A stretch of 40,668 nucleotides of DNA, taken from positions 1 through 40,668 of the IMG/VR virus record IMGVR_UViG_2534682060_000017. The stretch is one strand, 5' to 3'. A program made the position numbers and the translations under genes. Source of the stretch: a virus (Duplodnaviria > Heunggongvirae > Uroviricota > Caudoviricetes). Each line of letters starts with the position of its first letter. Within the stretch, counting starts at the first letter, position 1. Positions 1,307 to 15,061 of the stretch are shown in pieces. A model generated the notes under the pieces. The model saw only the letters and a list, made by a program, of their open reading frames with translations. It did no database searches and was not told the origin of the DNA.

Positions 1307-3778
1307 TTAAAAATCAACCGGATTCGGGATCAGTTTTTGCCAGATTGCTGAAACGTATTTTGCCTGGTAACGGGCGTCATCAAGTGCATTATGGCGCTCA
1401 CCTTCGAATGGAATAGCCGTTCTGGCATCGAAGTCTATGGCTTTCCCCAGCTCAACGATTGTGCGTACATCGCGATCGTTGTAGTAACGCCACGGGCAGG
1501 GGATCCCCTGCCGTTCGTATGAACGGCGCAAAATCGTGTTGTCGAAGTTGGCTCCATTTCCCCAGACCTGAACAAAAAATTCACCGGAGTTTTCGTCGAT
1601 AAATTCCCGCAATTGTAACAGTGCATCATCTAACGGGATTTCATCGGTCATAATGGCAGATTGCGCTTCGCGTGATTGCTTAAGCCACCATTTAATGGTG
1701 TCCCGATCAATGACTCCGCCAGCAGTTTCCAGATCGATAGTCTTACTAAATTCCGGTCCCATATCTCCGGTTTGCGGATCGAAAAATATTGCACCTATTG
1801 AGATAATCGGGGCATCAGGATTTTTTCCCATGGTTTCAAGGTCGATCATTAGATGGTCACACGTCCTGCTGGTGGATGTGATAACGTGATGACCGTTCAC
1901 CGTAATTAAGGGATCTGCCGTCTCGCCAGTTTCACTATCGCTGGCGTGATCCTGAGCGCTGCCAGCATTCTCTTTGTGTGGATGTTCAGCGCCTTCCATT
2001 TTCTCCGAATCGTCTTCCTGAACTTCAACCTGGTTCTTGTCATCGAATGTTTCCTGGTATGTTGCGTCGCCCATCACCGCACCACAATCAGGGCAGTTGC
2101 CGCCGCCGGTCTGACCGCAGGCGGTGCAGACTTTTTCCGCTTCCTGTTGCGCTACTGGCTCAGGTTGTTTCGTTTCTGGCTCGTTTTGTAACGCATTTGG
2201 GCTGTTTTGTTCCGCTTTCTGGTCGTTCTGTTCCGTTTCTTGCTGGTTCTGATTCACTGAATCGCGGGTTTCAATCCCCTTCACCCATTTCGGATCATTC
2301 GGGTCGCTAATCCCTGCAACAAATTCACCACGTGATACAGCAAGCAACTTATCGGCGTCAGGCTGGCTGATATTGGCTGCCTGCATAATTTTGTTTACTT
2401 CGTCAGCGGTAACTTTTACCGGCTCTGGTTGTGCGGTCGTGTCAGATGCACCAGTATTTTGTTGTGAACCTGAGTATGTACCGTTTTTACGGGCAAAATA
2501 TTCTTCTTTCGTGATTTCAGTAGCCCCTGCAGTCAGCGCCTTATTCAGACCAGAAAGTTTGTTTGCGCGACCATATTTTTCGCCATCCTTATCTGTGAAG
2601 AGGAAGTAGAACGGCCCCTCACGCTCTACAGATGGTTCGACTTCAACTTTGCATTCGGTTTTTTCGTTGTCCGGAATTGCCGTTTCCACTGCATCAGTTT
2701 CTGGTACTGGCGACGAGAGAGTATCAGTTGCGCTCTGATTTGTTCCTTCATCTTCAAACACGCCCTTTGTAGTCAGGTATTCAGTAATGTATTTGTTCAG
2801 TGCCACAGGGTCTTTGTGAATGTCGATCGGACGTTCACGGACAAGGCCAAAAATAGTCTGTCGGTCGTAGCGAAGGGCATCAGGCTGTTTGCGCATTGAT
2901 GCCGAGATACGCTTCCAGTCTTCGCGGTCGTTGTCGATAACTTCATTTTTTGCCCAGCGATGGATGCTGCCGTCAATGTTTCCGGCATCCACATCACCAG
3001 GCCAGAGAGCGTAGGCCAGTTCGTCATCCAGTGTTTTCCATGTCTGCTTGTATTCGCGATGAGTGGCAGCAATGACCGGGCTGATTTTTCCTGTTGAATT
3101 GTCAGTGTACTGTTGATTGGCTCTGGCGCGGGCGAGATCAACAACAGACGTGTATTTTCCGGTTTCCTTGCGTTCACCTTCGCGACGTTTTTTCCAGATG
3201 CGCATCTCTGCCTGAATTTCGGGCCATTTAGCACCAGGAATACATTTATGCTTAACCCACCCAATGGCGTGCAACTTAAGCTCCGGATACATGGCGTTAA
3301 CTTCTGGCATTTTCATCAACGCTTCAACGATATGTCCGTCGAATGTTGCCATGTCTTCCTGCAACAATTCCTGTGCGCTAATAACCATATCAACGGTGAT
3401 GTTTTCACATGTGTCGAACTTAACCAGGACCGCGTTCTGTACTTCAGGGGACAGCTTGTCAAAATTGACGTTCATCGGATCGGATTCTGGCTCGACCGGA
3501 ATAAAGGAAGCGGATTCCTCATCCCAGCAGTTTTCCTGCATATATTCGGTATCCCAGGAGTCGATGGCAGGGCGGGGCATGCCGGGTTTATCCTCGCAAA
3601 CAAGAAATTTATAAGCGCAGTCCTGAGCAGCCGGATATTGCTCCAGGAATTGCCAGGTAAATTTGGCTCGGGCGCGGCGTTCGTCGCCGGCTTCAATGGC
3701 AGTGGCTACAGCGACTGCACCTTCTTCCTTTATTGCCTGTTCGTCCGGAATGGCGGCGCAAATAAAGACTTTACTCAT
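1307..3778 (-). CDS. RecE-like exonuclease (exodeoxyribonuclease VIII-like) with C-terminal DEDDh/DnaQ-like 3'-5' exonuclease domain
   Basis: 823-aa ORF; C-terminus carries DLETMG ... HNALDDARY motifs typical of DEDDh exonucleases; central acidic low-complexity linker; GAGG about 10 nt upstream of ATG. Confidence 0.8.
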   Translation of the reverse strand: MSKVFICAAIPDEQAIKEEGAVAVATAIEAGDERRARAKFTWQFLEQYPAAQDCAYKFLVCEDKPGMPRPAIDSWDTEYMQENCWDEESASFIPVEPESDPMNVNFDKLSPEVQNAVLVKFDTCENITVDMVISAQELLQEDMATFDGHIVEALMKMPEVNAMYPELKLHAIGWVKHKCIPGAKWPEIQAEMRIWKKRREGERKETGKYTSVVDLARARANQQYTDNSTGKISPVIAATHREYKQTWKTLDDELAYALWPGDVDAGNIDGSIHRWAKNEVIDNDREDWKRISASMRKQPDALRYDRQTIFGLVRERPIDIHKDPVALNKYITEYLTTKGVFEDEGTNQSATDTLSSPVPETDAVETAIPDNEKTECKVEVEPSVEREGPFYFLFTDKDGEKYGRANKLSGLNKALTAGATEITKEEYFARKNGTYSGSQQNTGASDTTAQPEPVKVTADEVNKIMQAANISQPDADKLLAVSRGEFVAGISDPNDPKWVKGIETRDSVNQNQQETEQNDQKAEQNSPNALQNEPETKQPEPVAQQEAEKVCTACGQTGGGNCPDCGAVMGDATYQETFDDKNQVEVQEDDSEKMEGAEHPHKENAGSAQDHASDSETGETADPLITVNGHHVITSTSRTCDHLMIDLETMGKNPDAPIISIGAIFFDPQTGDMGPEFSKTIDLETAGGVIDRDTIKWWLKQSREAQSAIMTDEIPLDDALLQLREFIDENSGEFFVQVWGNGANFDNTILRRSYERQGIPCPWRYYNDRDVRTIVELGKAIDFDARTAIPFEGERHNALDDARYQAKYVSAIWQKLIPNPVDF

Positions 3779-4064: not shown

Positions 4065-4247
4065 TCAGCGTCCTTTTTGCATCAGGCGTAAACGGGCCAG
4101 CATTGAAACAATGCATATTTGATTTAATAGCTCCCGTTCGTGTTTTCTCTTGTTAATGGCATCTTCAGTAAATACAGGGTTACTGATTCTGACACCAATT
4201 TCAAAACAACCTTCAGACGTATTGACGTTTGGTAATAACGTTTCCAT
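4065..4247 (-). CDS. Hypothetical small early-left protein (kil-like position)
   Basis: 60-aa ORF; GAGGA RBS 7 nt upstream of ATG at 4247; position corresponds to kil in Rac/lambda early-left operons; identity not verified. Confidence 0.45.
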   Translation of the reverse strand: METLLPNVNTSEGCFEIGVRISNPVFTEDAINKRKHERELLNQICIVSMLARLRLMQKGR

Positions 4248-9936: not shown

Positions 9937-10376
9937 AGAGACTAAAGAGCATTAATACATATGTGAATTGAAATTTTCATGGTACAGGGGAGAGCTAGCG
10001 TGGTTGTCCGCTTTGTGCTAGAGGTGGATATTGAGGGGGATCAGAGGATATTTAAAATGGATGGTCCGTTTTACAGATGTACTTACATAATCACTGCCTA
10101 GTTGCTTCCTTTATGCCACGCTTTTATGCCCCAAAGATAGGTGTTGATGATAGCGGTAGTCGGTTCGGTGTAATACAACTGCTCGGTTACCGTAATCACT
10201 AATGGTGCCTGAGATTGCTTCTACGTAAGGGGGTAAGGAGTTGGCTCTGAGCATGTCAGCAACGAGGCCATAGTCTGCTGACTTCGGGGGGGGCATTCAG
10301 GAGCAGAATGAACAGATGGGGCGGGATTGGCTAATAATATTACCCATGGCGAATGTTAGCGACATGATCATATTCA

Positions 10377-10412
10377 GGTCATCAGCGGTCATCAGCGGTC
10401 ATCCGTGTCATC
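10377..10412. repeat. Tandem direct repeats of a 10-bp unit (GGTCATCAGC x2, then GGTCATCCGT, GTCATC)
   Basis: Read directly in the sequence about 240 bp upstream of the 834-aa gene; possible iteron-like protein-binding site. Confidence 0.6.
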
Positions 10413-10654
10413 TAGGGCTCTATCCTGACAGAAAACTATCCGGCACACTGCGTGAAAAATCAGAGTAAATGATACCTTCAGAGCATACAGGAGAAAGTCG
10501 ACGCTTTTCAAACGTGTGCCTTAAGAATTAGAGGATAATATAACAAAAATGAAATTTAGGATAACATCAGACTTGACATAGCTAGGTTATTGTAACTAAA
10601 TGCGGTAAAACTAATCAGAAAAATTTTCGTTATTTTTTATAGAGAGAATAATCT

Positions 10655-13159
10655 ATGGAGAAAACATTTATTTCGGAAATATTATCAGCTTATCATCATT
10701 TACAATTAGAAAATGCAAATGAAGCAGCCACAAGACTAAAAGTGATAGATCGGGTATTAAAGGAAGTCTTGATGTGGACTGATAGTGATATAAAACCAGA
10801 AGAGCATGTGACTGAAGATGGTTTGACAACTTATGCTGATTATATACTAAAAACAGCTAATATTGCTCTTGTTGTTGAAGCTAAAAAGGCAGGGCCAAGC
10901 TTTAGTACAATTCCAGGAAAAAGAAAAATAAAGCTAAGTAATAGTTTTTTACAAAGTGATCTTGGTGAAGCGATAATACAAGCTAGAGATTACGCCAGGA
11001 AATTTGGTATAGATTATGCTGTCGCTACGAATGGAAATGTATGGGCATGTTTTGCAGCTCAGAGGCATGACAATGTCAAATTTAATGATTCAATAGCGCT
11101 TGTGTTCTGGTCGTTAGAAGATTGCTTAAATGATAATTATCAAGAATTCTATGATTTACTTAGTCGTGAAAATGTTATATCAGGAAGTCTAGAAACAGCA
11201 CTTTTAGGTCGCGTCGAAAATCAAATAGAATTTAGAAAATTAAGAAATTTTTATTCGCAACAAAACAGAACACAGACAAATAATCCAATATATCATTTGA
11301 TTGCTGATGAATTAAGGTTGGCTTTTTCTGATTCTATACTTTACTTGGATGAAGACTCCTTTGATAAATGTTATGTTTCAACACCAGAAACTATGAGATT
11401 CGATAGTAAAATTAGAATGAATATAGGTAGGCGTTCAAGTGTGCTGAATGGTGAAGTACTAAAAGGGCTTAATGATAAAGATACAAAAAGAATAGTTGAT
11501 AAGTTTCAGGTTAAAGGGAAGAAAAAAATAAAAGTCAGGAATGACAAACCTCTCGCGATCTTGTTACTTGGGACTGTAGGTGCAGGTAAAACAACATTTC
11601 TTCATTACATGAGAAAGGTTAGAATAAAAGAGTTTTTTTCAAATCAATGTGATATCTTGACGCCGCATTGGGTTCATATAGACTTTCTAGATAATCCATC
11701 AGAAAGTTCAATAGTCGATTTTATTTATAAATCAATTCTGGAATATATCAATAAGCATCCTGTTTTGAGTAATAAGGATTTTGTATTTGATGCATTTCGA
11801 GAAGATATTGAGGCGATAAAATCAGGACCTCTTTTTTTATTGAGTGAGGATCAAAAAAATACCAGAATCTCGGATTTTTTATATGAACAATATAAAAAGA
11901 TAAAACCTTATGTTGATAAAATAATAAGTCGCGTTACAAAAGAGACATCTTTTTTTCTTGTTATTGATAACGTTGATCAGATCGAGTTTGATGATATCCA
12001 GTCCCGGATATTTACCGAGTCATTTTCAATTTCCAGAGCGCTTTCATTAAATTTAGTACTTTCATTGAGGCAGTCTACATTTATCAAACATAAAAACTCA
12101 CCTGCTATAGATGCTTTCGATTTTGAAGTTATACAAATAGATCCACCGAGAATAAGTAGTGTGATTGCAAAACGCTTTGCACTAGTAAAGTATATGACAA
12201 GTAATAAAAGTGGAAATTTTATTGCAGAAAATGGCGCTAAAGTTGTATTGGATGATATATCACAATTAGTCGATATTATTAGTGGGTCTGTGCTGGGAAG
12301 TGAGATTGGAACACGTATTGAAGTTCTTGCTACGGATGATGTTCGATTAGCATTACGTATGACTCGTGAGTTCTTAGAAAGAGGGTATACGAGTCCAGGT
12401 AAAGCAGTACAAATTTTCAGAGAACAAGGAAGATATCTTCTTCCACGTCATGAGGCATTTAGAGCTATATTACTGGGTACTGAGTTGACTTATAGCGAGT
12501 CAACGTCGACTATTGCGAACCCGTTTGATTCGAATTTAGCTGTGACACAAATGCAATTATTGAGGCTGTACATTCTTAATGTTATCGTTTCGTATGCAAG
12601 CGATCCCGGATTCAGACAAATCGATGGTTCGGTAATAACTGAAAAGTTAAGGTTAATTGGTATAGGTGACTCTTTCACGCATCGAGTTCTCGTTGATTTA
12701 TGCAATAAAAGGTTTTTGTTCACCGTAAATCACGGAGATCCAACAGCTTCATCAAGTTTCATTCCTTCTCGGCTGGGGGGGTATATTGCAAAAGAACTTA
12801 TTAGTAATTTCACGTTTATAGAGTGTATGCTTTATGATACATATATTGCTGATGCTAAGGTATGGAGTAGATTAAGAGATCTGAGTGCTAGAATTGAGTC
12901 TGAAAGAGATGTAATAAAAAGGATCACAATGCGTGTAAGTCGAGCAAAAACTTTCTATTATCAAATGGAAAAACTTATTTCACCGCTTTGTTCCGAAGCT
13001 ATTATAAGAGGGTTGCCTTCACAATGGTGTTCTAACCCTCTTCAGGAGCGTTTACCTGAGTTAAGAAAAGAACTAAGAAGAGTTCTTAATTCTGCAAAAA
13101 AAACATATCAACCGAAACAGGATGATTCGTCTAAGTATTTCCTTGATGAAACGGTTTAA
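10655..13159 (+). CDS. Candidate anti-phage defence protein: N-terminal HsdR-N/Mrr-like PD-(D/E)xK nuclease domain fused to P-loop NTPase (Walker A GTVGAGKTT, Walker B FFLVIDNVD) and C-terminal helical domain
   Basis: 834-aa ORF, markedly AT-rich versus flanking phage genes; N-terminus ATRLKVIDRVL..LMW ... ADYIL ... VVEAKK fits the HsdR-N/Mrr D...ExK pattern; Walker A at aa 306-314, hhhhDN Walker B at about aa 433-439; flanked by AT-rich non-coding DNA. Confidence 0.85.
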   Translation: MEKTFISEILSAYHHLQLENANEAATRLKVIDRVLKEVLMWTDSDIKPEEHVTEDGLTTYADYILKTANIALVVEAKKAGPSFSTIPGKRKIKLSNSFLQSDLGEAIIQARDYARKFGIDYAVATNGNVWACFAAQRHDNVKFNDSIALVFWSLEDCLNDNYQEFYDLLSRENVISGSLETALLGRVENQIEFRKLRNFYSQQNRTQTNNPIYHLIADELRLAFSDSILYLDEDSFDKCYVSTPETMRFDSKIRMNIGRRSSVLNGEVLKGLNDKDTKRIVDKFQVKGKKKIKVRNDKPLAILLLGTVGAGKTTFLHYMRKVRIKEFFSNQCDILTPHWVHIDFLDNPSESSIVDFIYKSILEYINKHPVLSNKDFVFDAFREDIEAIKSGPLFLLSEDQKNTRISDFLYEQYKKIKPYVDKIISRVTKETSFFLVIDNVDQIEFDDIQSRIFTESFSISRALSLNLVLSLRQSTFIKHKNSPAIDAFDFEVIQIDPPRISSVIAKRFALVKYMTSNKSGNFIAENGAKVVLDDISQLVDIISGSVLGSEIGTRIEVLATDDVRLALRMTREFLERGYTSPGKAVQIFREQGRYLLPRHEAFRAILLGTELTYSESTSTIANPFDSNLAVTQMQLLRLYILNVIVSYASDPGFRQIDGSVITEKLRLIGIGDSFTHRVLVDLCNKRFLFTVNHGDPTASSSFIPSRLGGYIAKELISNFTFIECMLYDTYIADAKVWSRLRDLSARIESERDVIKRITMRVSRAKTFYYQMEKLISPLCSEAIIRGLPSQWCSNPLQERLPELRKELRRVLNSAKKTYQPKQDDSSKYFLDETV

Positions 13160-13162
13160 AAG

Positions 13163-13192
13163 ATGGGGCTAGTATGCCCCATGCTATTATCT
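13163..13192 (+). terminator. Hairpin immediately after the 834-aa gene stop
   Basis: ATGGGGC / GCCCCAT 7-bp stem with 6-nt loop followed by a U-rich stretch. Confidence 0.4.
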
Positions 13193-13879
13193 TACTAAAA
13201 TAAATTTGGAAGTGCTGTTACAATAGATAGAGGCTCATTGTCGAGTCTCTGTTTTAATTAGTTGGTTATTTTATGTTTATTTATTTCGATATCAGATAAA
13301 AAATCAATAAAGACAGCTTTGTTGCTAGTATTTAATTCTGTAGTAATATACGGATAGTTGTTTTCTGATATACCACATATCTTTAATTGTTGGTTTTTGT
13401 CTTAGTTGATTTAAATTCAATCAACCACTCCAGCAACCTAAATATTCCTCCAGTTCCAAACAATGAATATATGATCAGGAGCATAGCACTGCTCTTCATT
13501 AAAAATTTACACTTAGTTTTGAGAAAACTGCTTACGTTATCTTAACTCTGAATTTGTACATCTTAAGAAGTGCTAGTTATATTTAGTTGTTGTGTTCCAT
13601 GTTTTACAGAAAAATCAGAGAAACTGTACTCAATAGTTGCATTTCATCACTGATGAGACCGCCTTGTATTTATCAGGACTGGTGTACGTCCGATACAGAA
13701 AGTTGTCGTGCTGGTCCTCAAATGTGCGCTGGCTATTGCGGGTAATGGCAATTTATTGTCTTGCTATTGTCCTTATGGATCGCCTTTCTGATTGATTTTA
13801 TATTGGCGAGGTAACGGGAGTTAAGTACAATGGCTGCGGGTGCTTGAGGCTATCTGTCTCAGGCATGAACACCAAAGGC

Positions 13880-13960
13880 AGATAGAGAAAAGCCCCAGTT
13901 AACATTACGCGTCCTGCAAGACGCTTAACATTAATCTGAGGCTCAATCTATGAACGGCAA
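13880..13960 (-). ncRNA. Predicted Sok-like antisense RNA region (approximate)
   Basis: Inference from hok/sok architecture: antisense RNA normally overlaps the hok leader/upstream ORF start; possible minus-strand promoter TTGCCT-17-TAACCT near 13955-13985; boundaries uncertain. Confidence 0.25.
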
Positions 13961-14006
13961 ATCTAGGTTAGCCTCTTACGTGCCGAAAGGCAAGGAGAAG
14001 CAGGCT

Positions 14007-14162
14007 ATGAAGCAGCAAAAGGCGATGTTAATCGCCCTGATCGTCATCTGTTTAACCGTCATTGTGACGGCACTGGTAACGAGGAAAGACCTCTGCGAGG
14101 TACGAATCCGAACCGGCCAGACGGAGGTCGCTGTCTTCACAGCTTACGAACCTGAGGAGTAA
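14007..14162 (+). CDS. hok: Hok/Gef family type I toxin
   Basis: Product MKQQKAMLIALIVICLTVIVTALVTRKDLCEVRIRTGQTEVAVFTAYEPEE closely resembles Hok/Gef; in-frame upstream ATG at 13950 gives a mok-like extension; mRNA leader resembles the R1 hok leader. Confidence 0.8.
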   Translation: MKQQKAMLIALIVICLTVIVTALVTRKDLCEVRIRTGQTEVAVFTAYEPEE

Positions 14163-14230
14163 GAGACCTGGCGGGGGAGAAATCCCTCGCCACCTCTGAT
14201 GTGTCAGGCATCCTCAACGCACCCGCACTT

Positions 14231-14251
14231 AACCCGCTTCGGCGGGTTTTT
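14231..14251 (+). terminator. Rho-independent terminator (AACCCGC-TTCG-GCGGGTT + T-run)
   Basis: GC stem, tetraloop, 5 T; also serves as hok mRNA 3' end. Confidence 0.6.
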
Positions 14252-14377
14252 CGTCGCATTATGAGGTTGTAATTTTAGCTACCATTAGACTATCCTAAGG
14301 ATCTCAAACAGATCTATTTTGCATCAAATTTGGTGCATGGCTTTGCCAATAATCGGAAAACAAAAGGACTCATTAGT

Positions 14378-14557
14378 ATGAGCTGCCCACTCAAAAAACA
14401 CACGCGGTTGAGTATTCCGCCTCGCGATAAAAGCGTTGTGGCAGTCCCTCGCCCAGCGATTGATGAAAACTGCGCACATCGTGAACAAGTGAAAAATGCT
14501 TTTGATTTCGGTTTTTCTCGTTATGAGAAAGCCATGGAAGAACTTTCAAAAGTGTAA
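14378..14557 (+). CDS. Putative antitoxin-like small protein upstream of Doc-family toxin
   Basis: 59-aa ORF from ATG 14378 with AAGGA RBS; stop 18 nt before the Doc-like start; identity by position only. Confidence 0.4.
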   Translation: MSCPLKKHTRLSIPPRDKSVVAVPRPAIDENCAHREQVKNAFDFGFSRYEKAMEELSKV

Positions 14558-14575
14558 TGATGGGTATTGTGCTCT

Positions 14576-15061
14576 ATGGCTGAGATTGTTGAAGGAGTGC
14601 ATTACCTTACGGTTGATGATCTTGTTGAAATCAATCGTTCCCTAATTGAATTACAGACGCCAGATGAGCCCGTTGGTGTTCTGAGTCCAGATAACTTAAG
14701 TTCTTCTCAGGCCCGTCCCAGCATGGTTCGATGGTATGAACAGACTAATGACATGTTTGTACTGGCATCGGTATTGATTGAAAGTCTGATTCAGAATCAT
14801 CCGTTTGCTAATGCGAACAAACGAACAGCTATGATGGCTGGTTACGTCTTCTTGTTGTTGAATGGCTATGAGTTAACAGCACCAGGCGATGAAATCGTGG
14901 AAATGGCAGAGGGACTGGCCTGCAAAACCTATACTCGAGAAGATCTCGAGAACTGGTTGTGTTATTGGTCTCGCGCGTATGACAGCCGGGAATTATGTAA
15001 AACAGGCGCAACTATTGTTTTGTATGAAACTATCAAGCTTAGAATAGAACAGCAAAACTAA
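14576..15061 (+). CDS. doc: Fic/Doc family toxin (death-on-curing-like)
   Basis: Contains the Fic/Doc signature HPFANANKR (HxFx(D/N)(A/G)NKR) followed by MMAGYVFLLLNGYEL. Confidence 0.75.
   Translation: MAEIVEGVHYLTVDDLVEINRSLIELQTPDEPVGVLSPDNLSSSQARPSMVRWYEQTNDMFVLASVLIESLIQNHPFANANKRTAMMAGYVFLLLNGYELTAPGDEIVEMAEGLACKTYTREDLENWLCYWSRAYDSRELCKTGATIVLYETIKLRIEQQN

Follow-up and report, generated by a model that had tools for sequence, protein, structure and literature searches.

A spacer between a candidate defence gene and hok/sok in a lambdoid prophage of Escherichia coli is probably a mosaic recombination joint

The window analysed here is a stretch of 40,668 nucleotides (positions 1 to 40,668 of IMG/VR virus record IMGVR_UViG_2534682060_000017, Caudoviricetes) which represents a Rac/Qin-like lambdoid prophage of E. 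coli. Our subject is the 790-bp spacer at 13160–13949, limited at its left by the stop codon (13157–13159) of an open reading frame (ORF) of 834 amino acids (aa) and at its right by the ATG of mok (13950). The same 790 bp occur with 100% identity in 4 complete RefSeq genomes and with 98.5–99.9% identity in 4 more. A first-pass annotation had presented this spacer as a single AT-rich, ORF-poor interval hiding a small hydrophobic peptide. It appears to us, with good probability, to be an ordinary mosaic junction composed of four parts rather than one element. These parts and the features that they contain are the following, from left to right.

13163–13182, plus strand: hairpin T1 (ATGGGGC-tagtat-GCCCCAT), detected by a terminator scan; 3′ end of the mobile 834-aa cassette.
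13183–13520, no strand assigned: AT-rich orphan filler (GC content ~0.30–0.31), carried only with the 834-aa cargo module.
13225–13259, plus strand: hairpin T2 (AGAUAGAGGCUC-auuguc-GAGUCUCUGUUU, then UAAUU), detected by folding; putative terminator.
13383–13499, minus strand: 38-aa ORF, judged a chance ORF from shuffled sequences, protein searches and substitutions.
13521–13707, plus strand: strongly diverged copy of a conserved region found upstream of a small ORF (sORF), placed by alignment; its left limit is fuzzy (13526–13586, depending on the allele compared).
13698–13702, plus strand: inactivated Shine-Dalgarno (SD) site, GAAAG, with private substitutions at 13699 and 13701; GGAGG-type in ~160 other copies.
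13708–13795, plus strand: likely pseudogene of a 29-aa hydrophobic sORF, with a GTG start and a 2-bp deletion after 13741.
13803–13831, plus strand: hok promoter-like site (TTGGCG-17-TACAAT), from a promoter scan; the same site is present in phage Tritos.
13838–14252, plus strand: hok mRNA, from Rfam RF01794, Pfam HOK_GEF and the RefSeq hokD annotation.
13886–13958, minus strand: putative Sok-like antisense RNA, with a single-stranded 5′ tail, a long hairpin and a U-run (UUUUCUCU).

The mosaic is delimited by the points at which homology stops and resumes. Similarity to the prophage backbone stops at 10018–10046 on the left and returns at 13526–13586 on the right; to the right of this border the window can be aligned with sequences upstream of hok in many lambdoid phages and prophages, Tritos, Evi and mEp460 among them, and over 13547/13565–13949 it is 88–92% identical to many prophages. 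The island so defined (~10047–13520) contains a cassette shared with plasmids (10389–13182), flanked on each side by ~340 bp of orphan DNA. The closest relatives of the 834-aa gene (91–94% identity at the amino acid level, 86–87% at the DNA level) reside on IncFII-type plasmids and in Enterobacter and Phytobacter, and in every case their DNA homology to the window ends at 13182, the final base of the T1 hairpin. The spacer is thus likely a recombination joint in which the end of an imported 834-aa cassette, orphan DNA, a decayed sORF module and the hok/sok leader follow one another; it would lie at the right border of a hot spot for cargo genes (morons or defence genes) in a lambdoid prophage. 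The left-hand orphan mirrors the right-hand one, plasmid-cassette homology beginning only at 10389.

The gene order in the genome of strain MS 119-7 (NZ_CP146653), which has this exact module, is dicB, a cI-like repressor, a Cro/CI-family regulator, a YdaT family gene, a replisome organiser, DUF977, the 834-aa hypothetical protein, hokD, DUF968, RusA and Q. Judging from such comparisons, the interval between DUF977, a gene of the replication region, and hok appears to be a cargo hot spot in Rac/Qin-like prophages, with the spacer at its right border, because the flanking backbone is conserved while the cargo varies between prophages: the same site holds Drt2 and RipA together with a minus-strand gene, a 798-aa AAA_13 ATPase, a 269-aa protein or a 444-aa FRG-domain protein. 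Hot spots for cargo and defence genes in prophages are known, for example those of P2 and P4 and the defence islands of E. coli. As with phage morons and these hot spots, a fixed backbone site receives varied, mostly defence-like cargo in AT-rich foreign DNA; the cassette in the window ends in its own terminator hairpin, has a GC content of 0.30–0.37 versus 0.49 in the backbone and occupies a site whose content varies among related phages. The difference from known hot spots is that the 834-aa cargo is only a defence candidate (no significant PADLOC match; PHROG 14719). A full-text literature search returned no description of this lambdoid hokD site, only general papers on hot spots.

The 834-aa protein belongs to a family of large, stand-alone proteins of ~815–860 aa, represented among the candidates scored by 396 proteins with E ≤ 0.001, down to 45% identity and across Proteobacteria. 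It matches PHROG 14719, a family of unknown function, and displays sub-threshold HSDR_N-like and P-loop/NACHT-like signals; PADLOC yielded no significant match, and a sequence search of the PDB gave P-loop noise only and no relative. We regard the gene as a candidate for defence, in a cassette of the nuclease/NTPase type. On IncFII plasmids a 93%-identical copy adjoins an integrase gene and a convergent TIR gene (CAP12-PCTIR), and the neighbours are different in other relatives. A search for terminal repeats, direct or inverted, that could mark a mobile element around the cargo gave only short chance matches.

T1 would terminate and delimit the imported cassette. Among the plasmid, Enterobacter and Phytobacter copies of the 834-aa gene its stem is conserved and its loop is variable, and in these relatives it is followed by a T-rich run (TTTATA). 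The window has lost this U-tract, which is replaced by GCTATTATCT, because the joint falls right behind the T1 stem. Some 40 bp further on lies T2, whose stem-loop spans 13225–13254 and is followed by UUUUAAUU. The segment 13150–13275 folds better than any of 200 shuffled versions (z = −3.5), and T2 may stand in for the U-tract that T1 lost. Transcription leaving the 834-aa gene would presumably be stopped by T1 and T2.

The orphan segment was found only alongside the same 834-aa/hok module, in 8 E. coli genomes, 3 IMG/VR contigs and 2 metagenome contigs. Sensitive blastn against phages gave no match, only the same module came back from a distant DNA search of E. coli genomes and phages and from scanning metagenome and IMG/VR contigs for exact words, the conceptual translations have no protein homologue and no tandem repeats were found in the spacer. 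These ~340 bp of AT-rich DNA would have come with the cargo and most likely supply only the second terminator-like hairpin; otherwise the segment is presumably junction filler without a function of its own.

Acquired AT-rich DNA in E. coli often carries promoters, and the segment might therefore encode a small regulatory RNA, or a promoter, acting on the defence gene or on the sORF and hok. Promoter-like hexamers do occur in or near it (13295–13268, minus strand; 13555–13583, plus strand), and T1 and T2 could bound short transcripts. However, 4 promoter-like sites were found where 3.4 are expected from shuffled sequences, no Rfam family matches at E ≤ 1 and the minus strand folds at the level of shuffles (z = −0.18). 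No homologous orphan sequence exists elsewhere. We consider such a regulatory role very unlikely.

Another origin of the segment, compatible with that of a recombination joint, would be the decay of an earlier cargo gene predating the 834-aa cassette. The orphan sits where other prophages have the start of a minus-strand cargo gene, 170–330 bp to the left of the conserved hok module; it lies outside the plasmid-shared cassette; and its minus frame 1 contains an open stretch of 47 codons. Against this, all six frames contain stops, the segment has no similarity among 5.8 billion proteins and none to the genes that neighbour the 834-aa gene at related loci (TIR, DUF87, FRG and 69-aa proteins, all E > 0.4). 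We hold this origin to be possible, albeit unlikely. The CAP12-PCTIR TIR gene had been tried as a source and was rejected, since tblastn against 13100–13900 gave nothing better than E = 0.4; the same limit applied to four further neighbour proteins of related 834-aa loci.

The coding content of the spacer was compared with 2000 dinucleotide-preserving shuffles of its 790 bp. The description of the spacer as AT-rich holds for its left half (GC content 0.306 for 13160–13564) and not for the remainder (0.391 for 13565–13802 and 0.483 for 13803–13949; 0.487 for the whole window). As had been stated, neither strand contains an ORF of at least 60 aa, the longest one inside 13160–13949 being 52 aa long when any start type is allowed. 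This was thought to be unusual; yet 58% of the shuffles are equally free of ORFs of at least 60 aa. A long ‘empty’ interval appears, moreover, to be the rule at the cargo-hok locus, because 620–800 bp separate the cargo from the hokD coding sequence in each of the other prophages compared. The window itself has a second long gap, of 709 bp (9947–10654), to the left of the 834-aa gene.

The 38-aa minus-strand ORF at 13383–13499 exists with exactly the sequence reported, and it lacks a ribosome-binding site (RBS), as reported too: the 15 nt before its AUG (GUGUAAAUUUUUA) contain no SD motif (sought at −5 to −12). Three observations speak for the proposal that its product is a genuine small membrane peptide, acting as a type I toxin or as an accessory to the 834-aa candidate: (i) the ORF is open in 8 of the 8 genomes carrying it, two variant alleles included, (ii) the N-terminal half of the peptide is hydrophobic and (iii) among weak, sub-threshold profile matches there is one to a PHROG family (phrog_32121, E = 0.06). 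On the other hand, an ATG-started ORF of at least 38 aa is present in 81% of the 790-bp shuffles, and an equally hydrophobic one in 45%; for the 382-bp orphan part alone, the probability of an ATG-started ORF of this size is 0.27. A collection of 15 billion proteins does not contain the exact sequence, and a search of 5.8 billion with the ORF joined to the longest minus-strand open stretch revealed no homologue. In the two variant genomes the ORF differs at two positions (I27V and W25L), both changes being non-synonymous. Its grand average of hydropathicity (GRAVY) is merely 0.30, versus 1.81 for the product of the intact 29-aa sORF described below. Comparison with related loci, which had been called for, shows that the DNA carrying the ORF is missing downstream of every other copy of the 834-aa gene, as homology ends at 13182, and nothing ties the spacer functionally to the 834-aa candidate. 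From these sequence comparisons the ORF appears to be a chance ORF; that it encodes a functional peptide is extremely improbable. The features first noted in the spacer were thus correctly described and do not rise above chance: the absence of ORFs and the presence of the 38-aa ORF are unremarkable because shuffle frequencies are high.

The spacer had alternatively been suspected to be the remnant of a decayed second gene. A remnant is indeed present, in another ORF, on the other strand and at another place than proposed: it is the 29-aa sORF at 13708–13795 on the plus strand, which is frameshifted and has lost its SD site. GTG 13708 now opens an out-of-frame 27-aa product (MLVLKCALAIAGNGNLLSCYCPYGSPF), the ancestral TGA stop being at 13793–13795. 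All copies linked to the 834-aa cargo share both lesions. Divergence from the nearest allele falls from 22% in the sORF-upstream region to 6.6% in the sORF and 0.6% in the hok leader. The upstream region is the most divergent of those sampled, with 17 private changes in 160 columns, and private changes favour GC to AT (11 versus 6). The window copy is best read as a pseudogene within a decaying block, because the SD site is mutated and the 2-bp deletion shifts the frame. This backbone module would have been silenced by the loss of its RBS and by the frameshift, and the sORF is presumably not expressed in the lineage of the window. In most prophages the conserved module opens with a perfect 9-bp hairpin (GTCCGCTTT-n6/7-AAAGCGGAC; ~2940–2968 in locus L001, 57-allele consensus) which has no U-tract on either strand; the counterpart in the window is weak and AT-rich (AGTTTT-gag-AAAACT, ~13513–13529).

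Intact copies of the sORF (e.g. 3148–3237 in locus L001 and ~4148–4237 in locus L010) code for a hydrophobic peptide of 29 aa (MLVLKCALAIAAVMAIYCLAVVLMDRLSD; MLVLKCALAI..DRLSD) with the GRAVY value of 1.81 given above; among the carriers are strain 504237 and phages Tritos and mEp460. An AGGAGG SD site lies 5 nt before the GTG, and the ORF ends 8 nt ahead of the −35 hexamer of hok. About 160 copies were gathered from IMG/VR through two pattern scans, and these represent ~20 protein alleles. The length is 29 codons in all but one of them (31 codons), and every copy has an SD site (GGAGG, GGAGA or GGGGG, expected 5–7 nt before the start codon), even where the spacer that follows it differs (GGAGGTTGTC, GGAGATTTAT, GGGAGGTCATC). 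Replacements are conservative (V/I, A/T, A/V, D/E), and the ratio of non-synonymous to synonymous substitution rates (dN/dS) is 0.20 against a Shigella copy, 0.15 against allele L109 and ~0.15–0.26 across the informative comparisons. Of 5,426 complete E. coli genomes, 1,711 (~32%) carry the module together with ~170 bp of conserved upstream region. The Prokaryotic Genome Annotation Pipeline (PGAP) annotates no sORF in the complete E. coli genomes that bear the module, and a few GenBank records label it ‘hypothetical’ or ‘membrane protein’. The peptide matches no family in Pfam, NCBIfam or PHROG, and a literature search with the peptide string found no papers. The scanner passed no conserved sigma-70 promoter for the sORF; inspection by eye gave TTGAAT-17-CATATT of the Tritos allele as the best candidate, and its −35 is not conserved between alleles. 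The conserved region has no global RNA structure better than that of shuffles (z = −0.46).

The Shigella virulence plasmid (pINV) has, ~290 bp ahead of icsP/sopA, a remnant of the module with sORF and hok promoter that is 78% identical in DNA. Its hok leader is truncated after ~60 nt. The sORF retains its SD site and an intact frame of 29 codons, which starts with ATG; this copy is 79% identical. In Shigella flexneri plasmid pCP301 (AF386526.1, locus L118) the remnant occupies 1502–1787 and the sORF 1601–1690, and the allele is found in at least 135 pINV-type plasmids from four Shigella species.

These patterns suggest that the 29-aa sORF family is a new family of small hydrophobic prophage peptides missed by annotation, and it is the sole novel item at this locus. 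One may object that the sORF is not a gene and that the block is regulatory DNA for the hok promoter, of which the window would carry a variant. The stop of the sORF 8 nt ahead of the hok −35 hexamer would suit such a role, as would the consistent failure of PGAP to annotate it and one comparison with dN/dS above 1. Opposed to it are the maintenance of the frame and of the 29-codon length with a single 31-codon exception, the retention of the SD site, the conservative replacements and the switch from GTG to ATG on pINV, accompanied by 9 synonymous and 7 non-synonymous changes. Furthermore, hok loci of the 933W type, whose homology begins at the hok promoter, work without the block. A purely regulatory block therefore seems quite unlikely to us.

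In size (29 aa), in its one predicted transmembrane stretch and in its charged C-terminus (DRLSD), the sORF product resembles the small type I toxins TisB, ZorO, ShoB, Ldr and Ibs (19–35 aa); it is likewise prophage-borne and adjoins a known type I toxin locus. It differs from them in having no similarity to any Pfam, NCBIfam or PHROG family and, in the window, in being inactivated. The sORF might be a functional membrane peptide that forms a unit with the prophage hok/sok, for instance as a second small toxin, or by modulating Hok or the transcription that enters hok, and that marks the right border of the lambdoid defence hot spot. We offer this as a tentative idea, which is unlikely to hold; if it were true, the window would represent a lineage that lost the sORF partner while hok/sok stays intact.

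The right end of the spacer had been assigned to the hok mRNA leader, and Rfam bears this out: the sok family RF01794 matches 13838–14012 with 110 bits (gathering score 59, E = 9e-26). The leader takes only the last 112 nt of the spacer. The −10 hexamer of the hok promoter-like site ends 7 nt before the start of this match. The product of 13950–14162 matches Pfam PF01848 (HOK_GEF, 3e-23); mok begins with the ATG at 13950, the hok ORF is 14007–14162 and the RefSeq annotation of hokD corresponds to the latter. As read from the sequence, tac (GGGUGCUUGAGG, 13838–13849) pairs with fbi (CCUCAACGCACCC, 14212–14224) with one bulged base, and the 3′ terminator is AACCCGC-uucg-GCGGGUUUUU (14231–14251). 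Folding points to a Sok-like antisense RNA on the minus strand: from 13958 to 13886, none of 200 shuffles folds as well (z = −5.4). It is preceded by TTGCCT-17-TAACCT (13993 to 13965), which we take to be the Sok promoter by analogy with sok of plasmid R1. Overall, the right-hand 147 bp of the spacer correspond to the promoter and 5′ leader of hok/sok loci such as those of plasmid R1 and hokD/hokW, with mok/hok, tac/fbi, terminator and Sok-like hairpin; nothing in this part is out of the ordinary, and the difference is the additional 29-aa sORF module directly upstream in loci of the window type, which the 933W-type and plasmid hok loci do not have. The intact hok promoter, the leader and the Sok-like RNA would complete the spacer at its right, and hok/sok presumably works in the window as in other prophages. 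The only parts of the spacer that we would expect to be active are the terminators at its left and hok/sok at its right.

The Rfam scan gave no family other than sok above threshold; a sub-threshold match to isrK (14171–14252, 26 bits, gathering score 50) probably reflects just a similarity of the hok terminator. A promoter-like site on the minus strand (TTAACT-18-TAAAAT, 13824 to 13795; 3263 to 3234 in locus L001) lies across the hok promoter and is directed into the sORF; it is shared by the window and Tritos and is not conserved on pINV, and could drive an RNA antisense to the sORF. Further to the right, two near-identical prophages (loci L002 and L122) lose homology to the window between 14249 and 15130. 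Here the window has a 75-aa ORF (14330–14557, no Pfam match) followed by a 164-aa ORF of the Fic/Doc family (14567–15061, Pfam 6.9e-12), which may form a Phd/Doc-like pair in a second cargo slot, occupied by rem in some other prophages.

Several observations weigh against a joint composed of inert filler and a decayed module. The divergence of 13521–13707 could reflect recombination with an unsampled allele instead of decay. A 52-aa ORF started by TTG (13637–13795) remains; it ends in the C-terminal 17 residues of the peptide and may be expressed. Comparison of the sORF with that of phage HannyBb gives a dN/dS of 1.8, on six changes. The orphan could still hold an unrecognised small RNA or promoter, and its copies, all at least 98.5% identical, are too similar for conservation to be informative. 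Its plus strand folds better than shuffles (z = −2.3), a signal for which T2 accounts. A recombination joint nevertheless remains the reading that we prefer.

Read as such a joint, the spacer serves as an example of how prophage hot spots take up a cargo gene and how the DNA at the junction decays, and it cautions against taking hydrophobic mini-ORFs in AT-rich DNA for toxins. Standard annotation overlooks a conserved sORF which about a third of complete E. coli genomes carry beside hok/sok and which pINV of Shigella carries upstream of icsP. Should it be expressed, the well-explored surroundings of this toxin-antitoxin locus would gain a small membrane protein; the sORF may also affect hok transcription in prophages.

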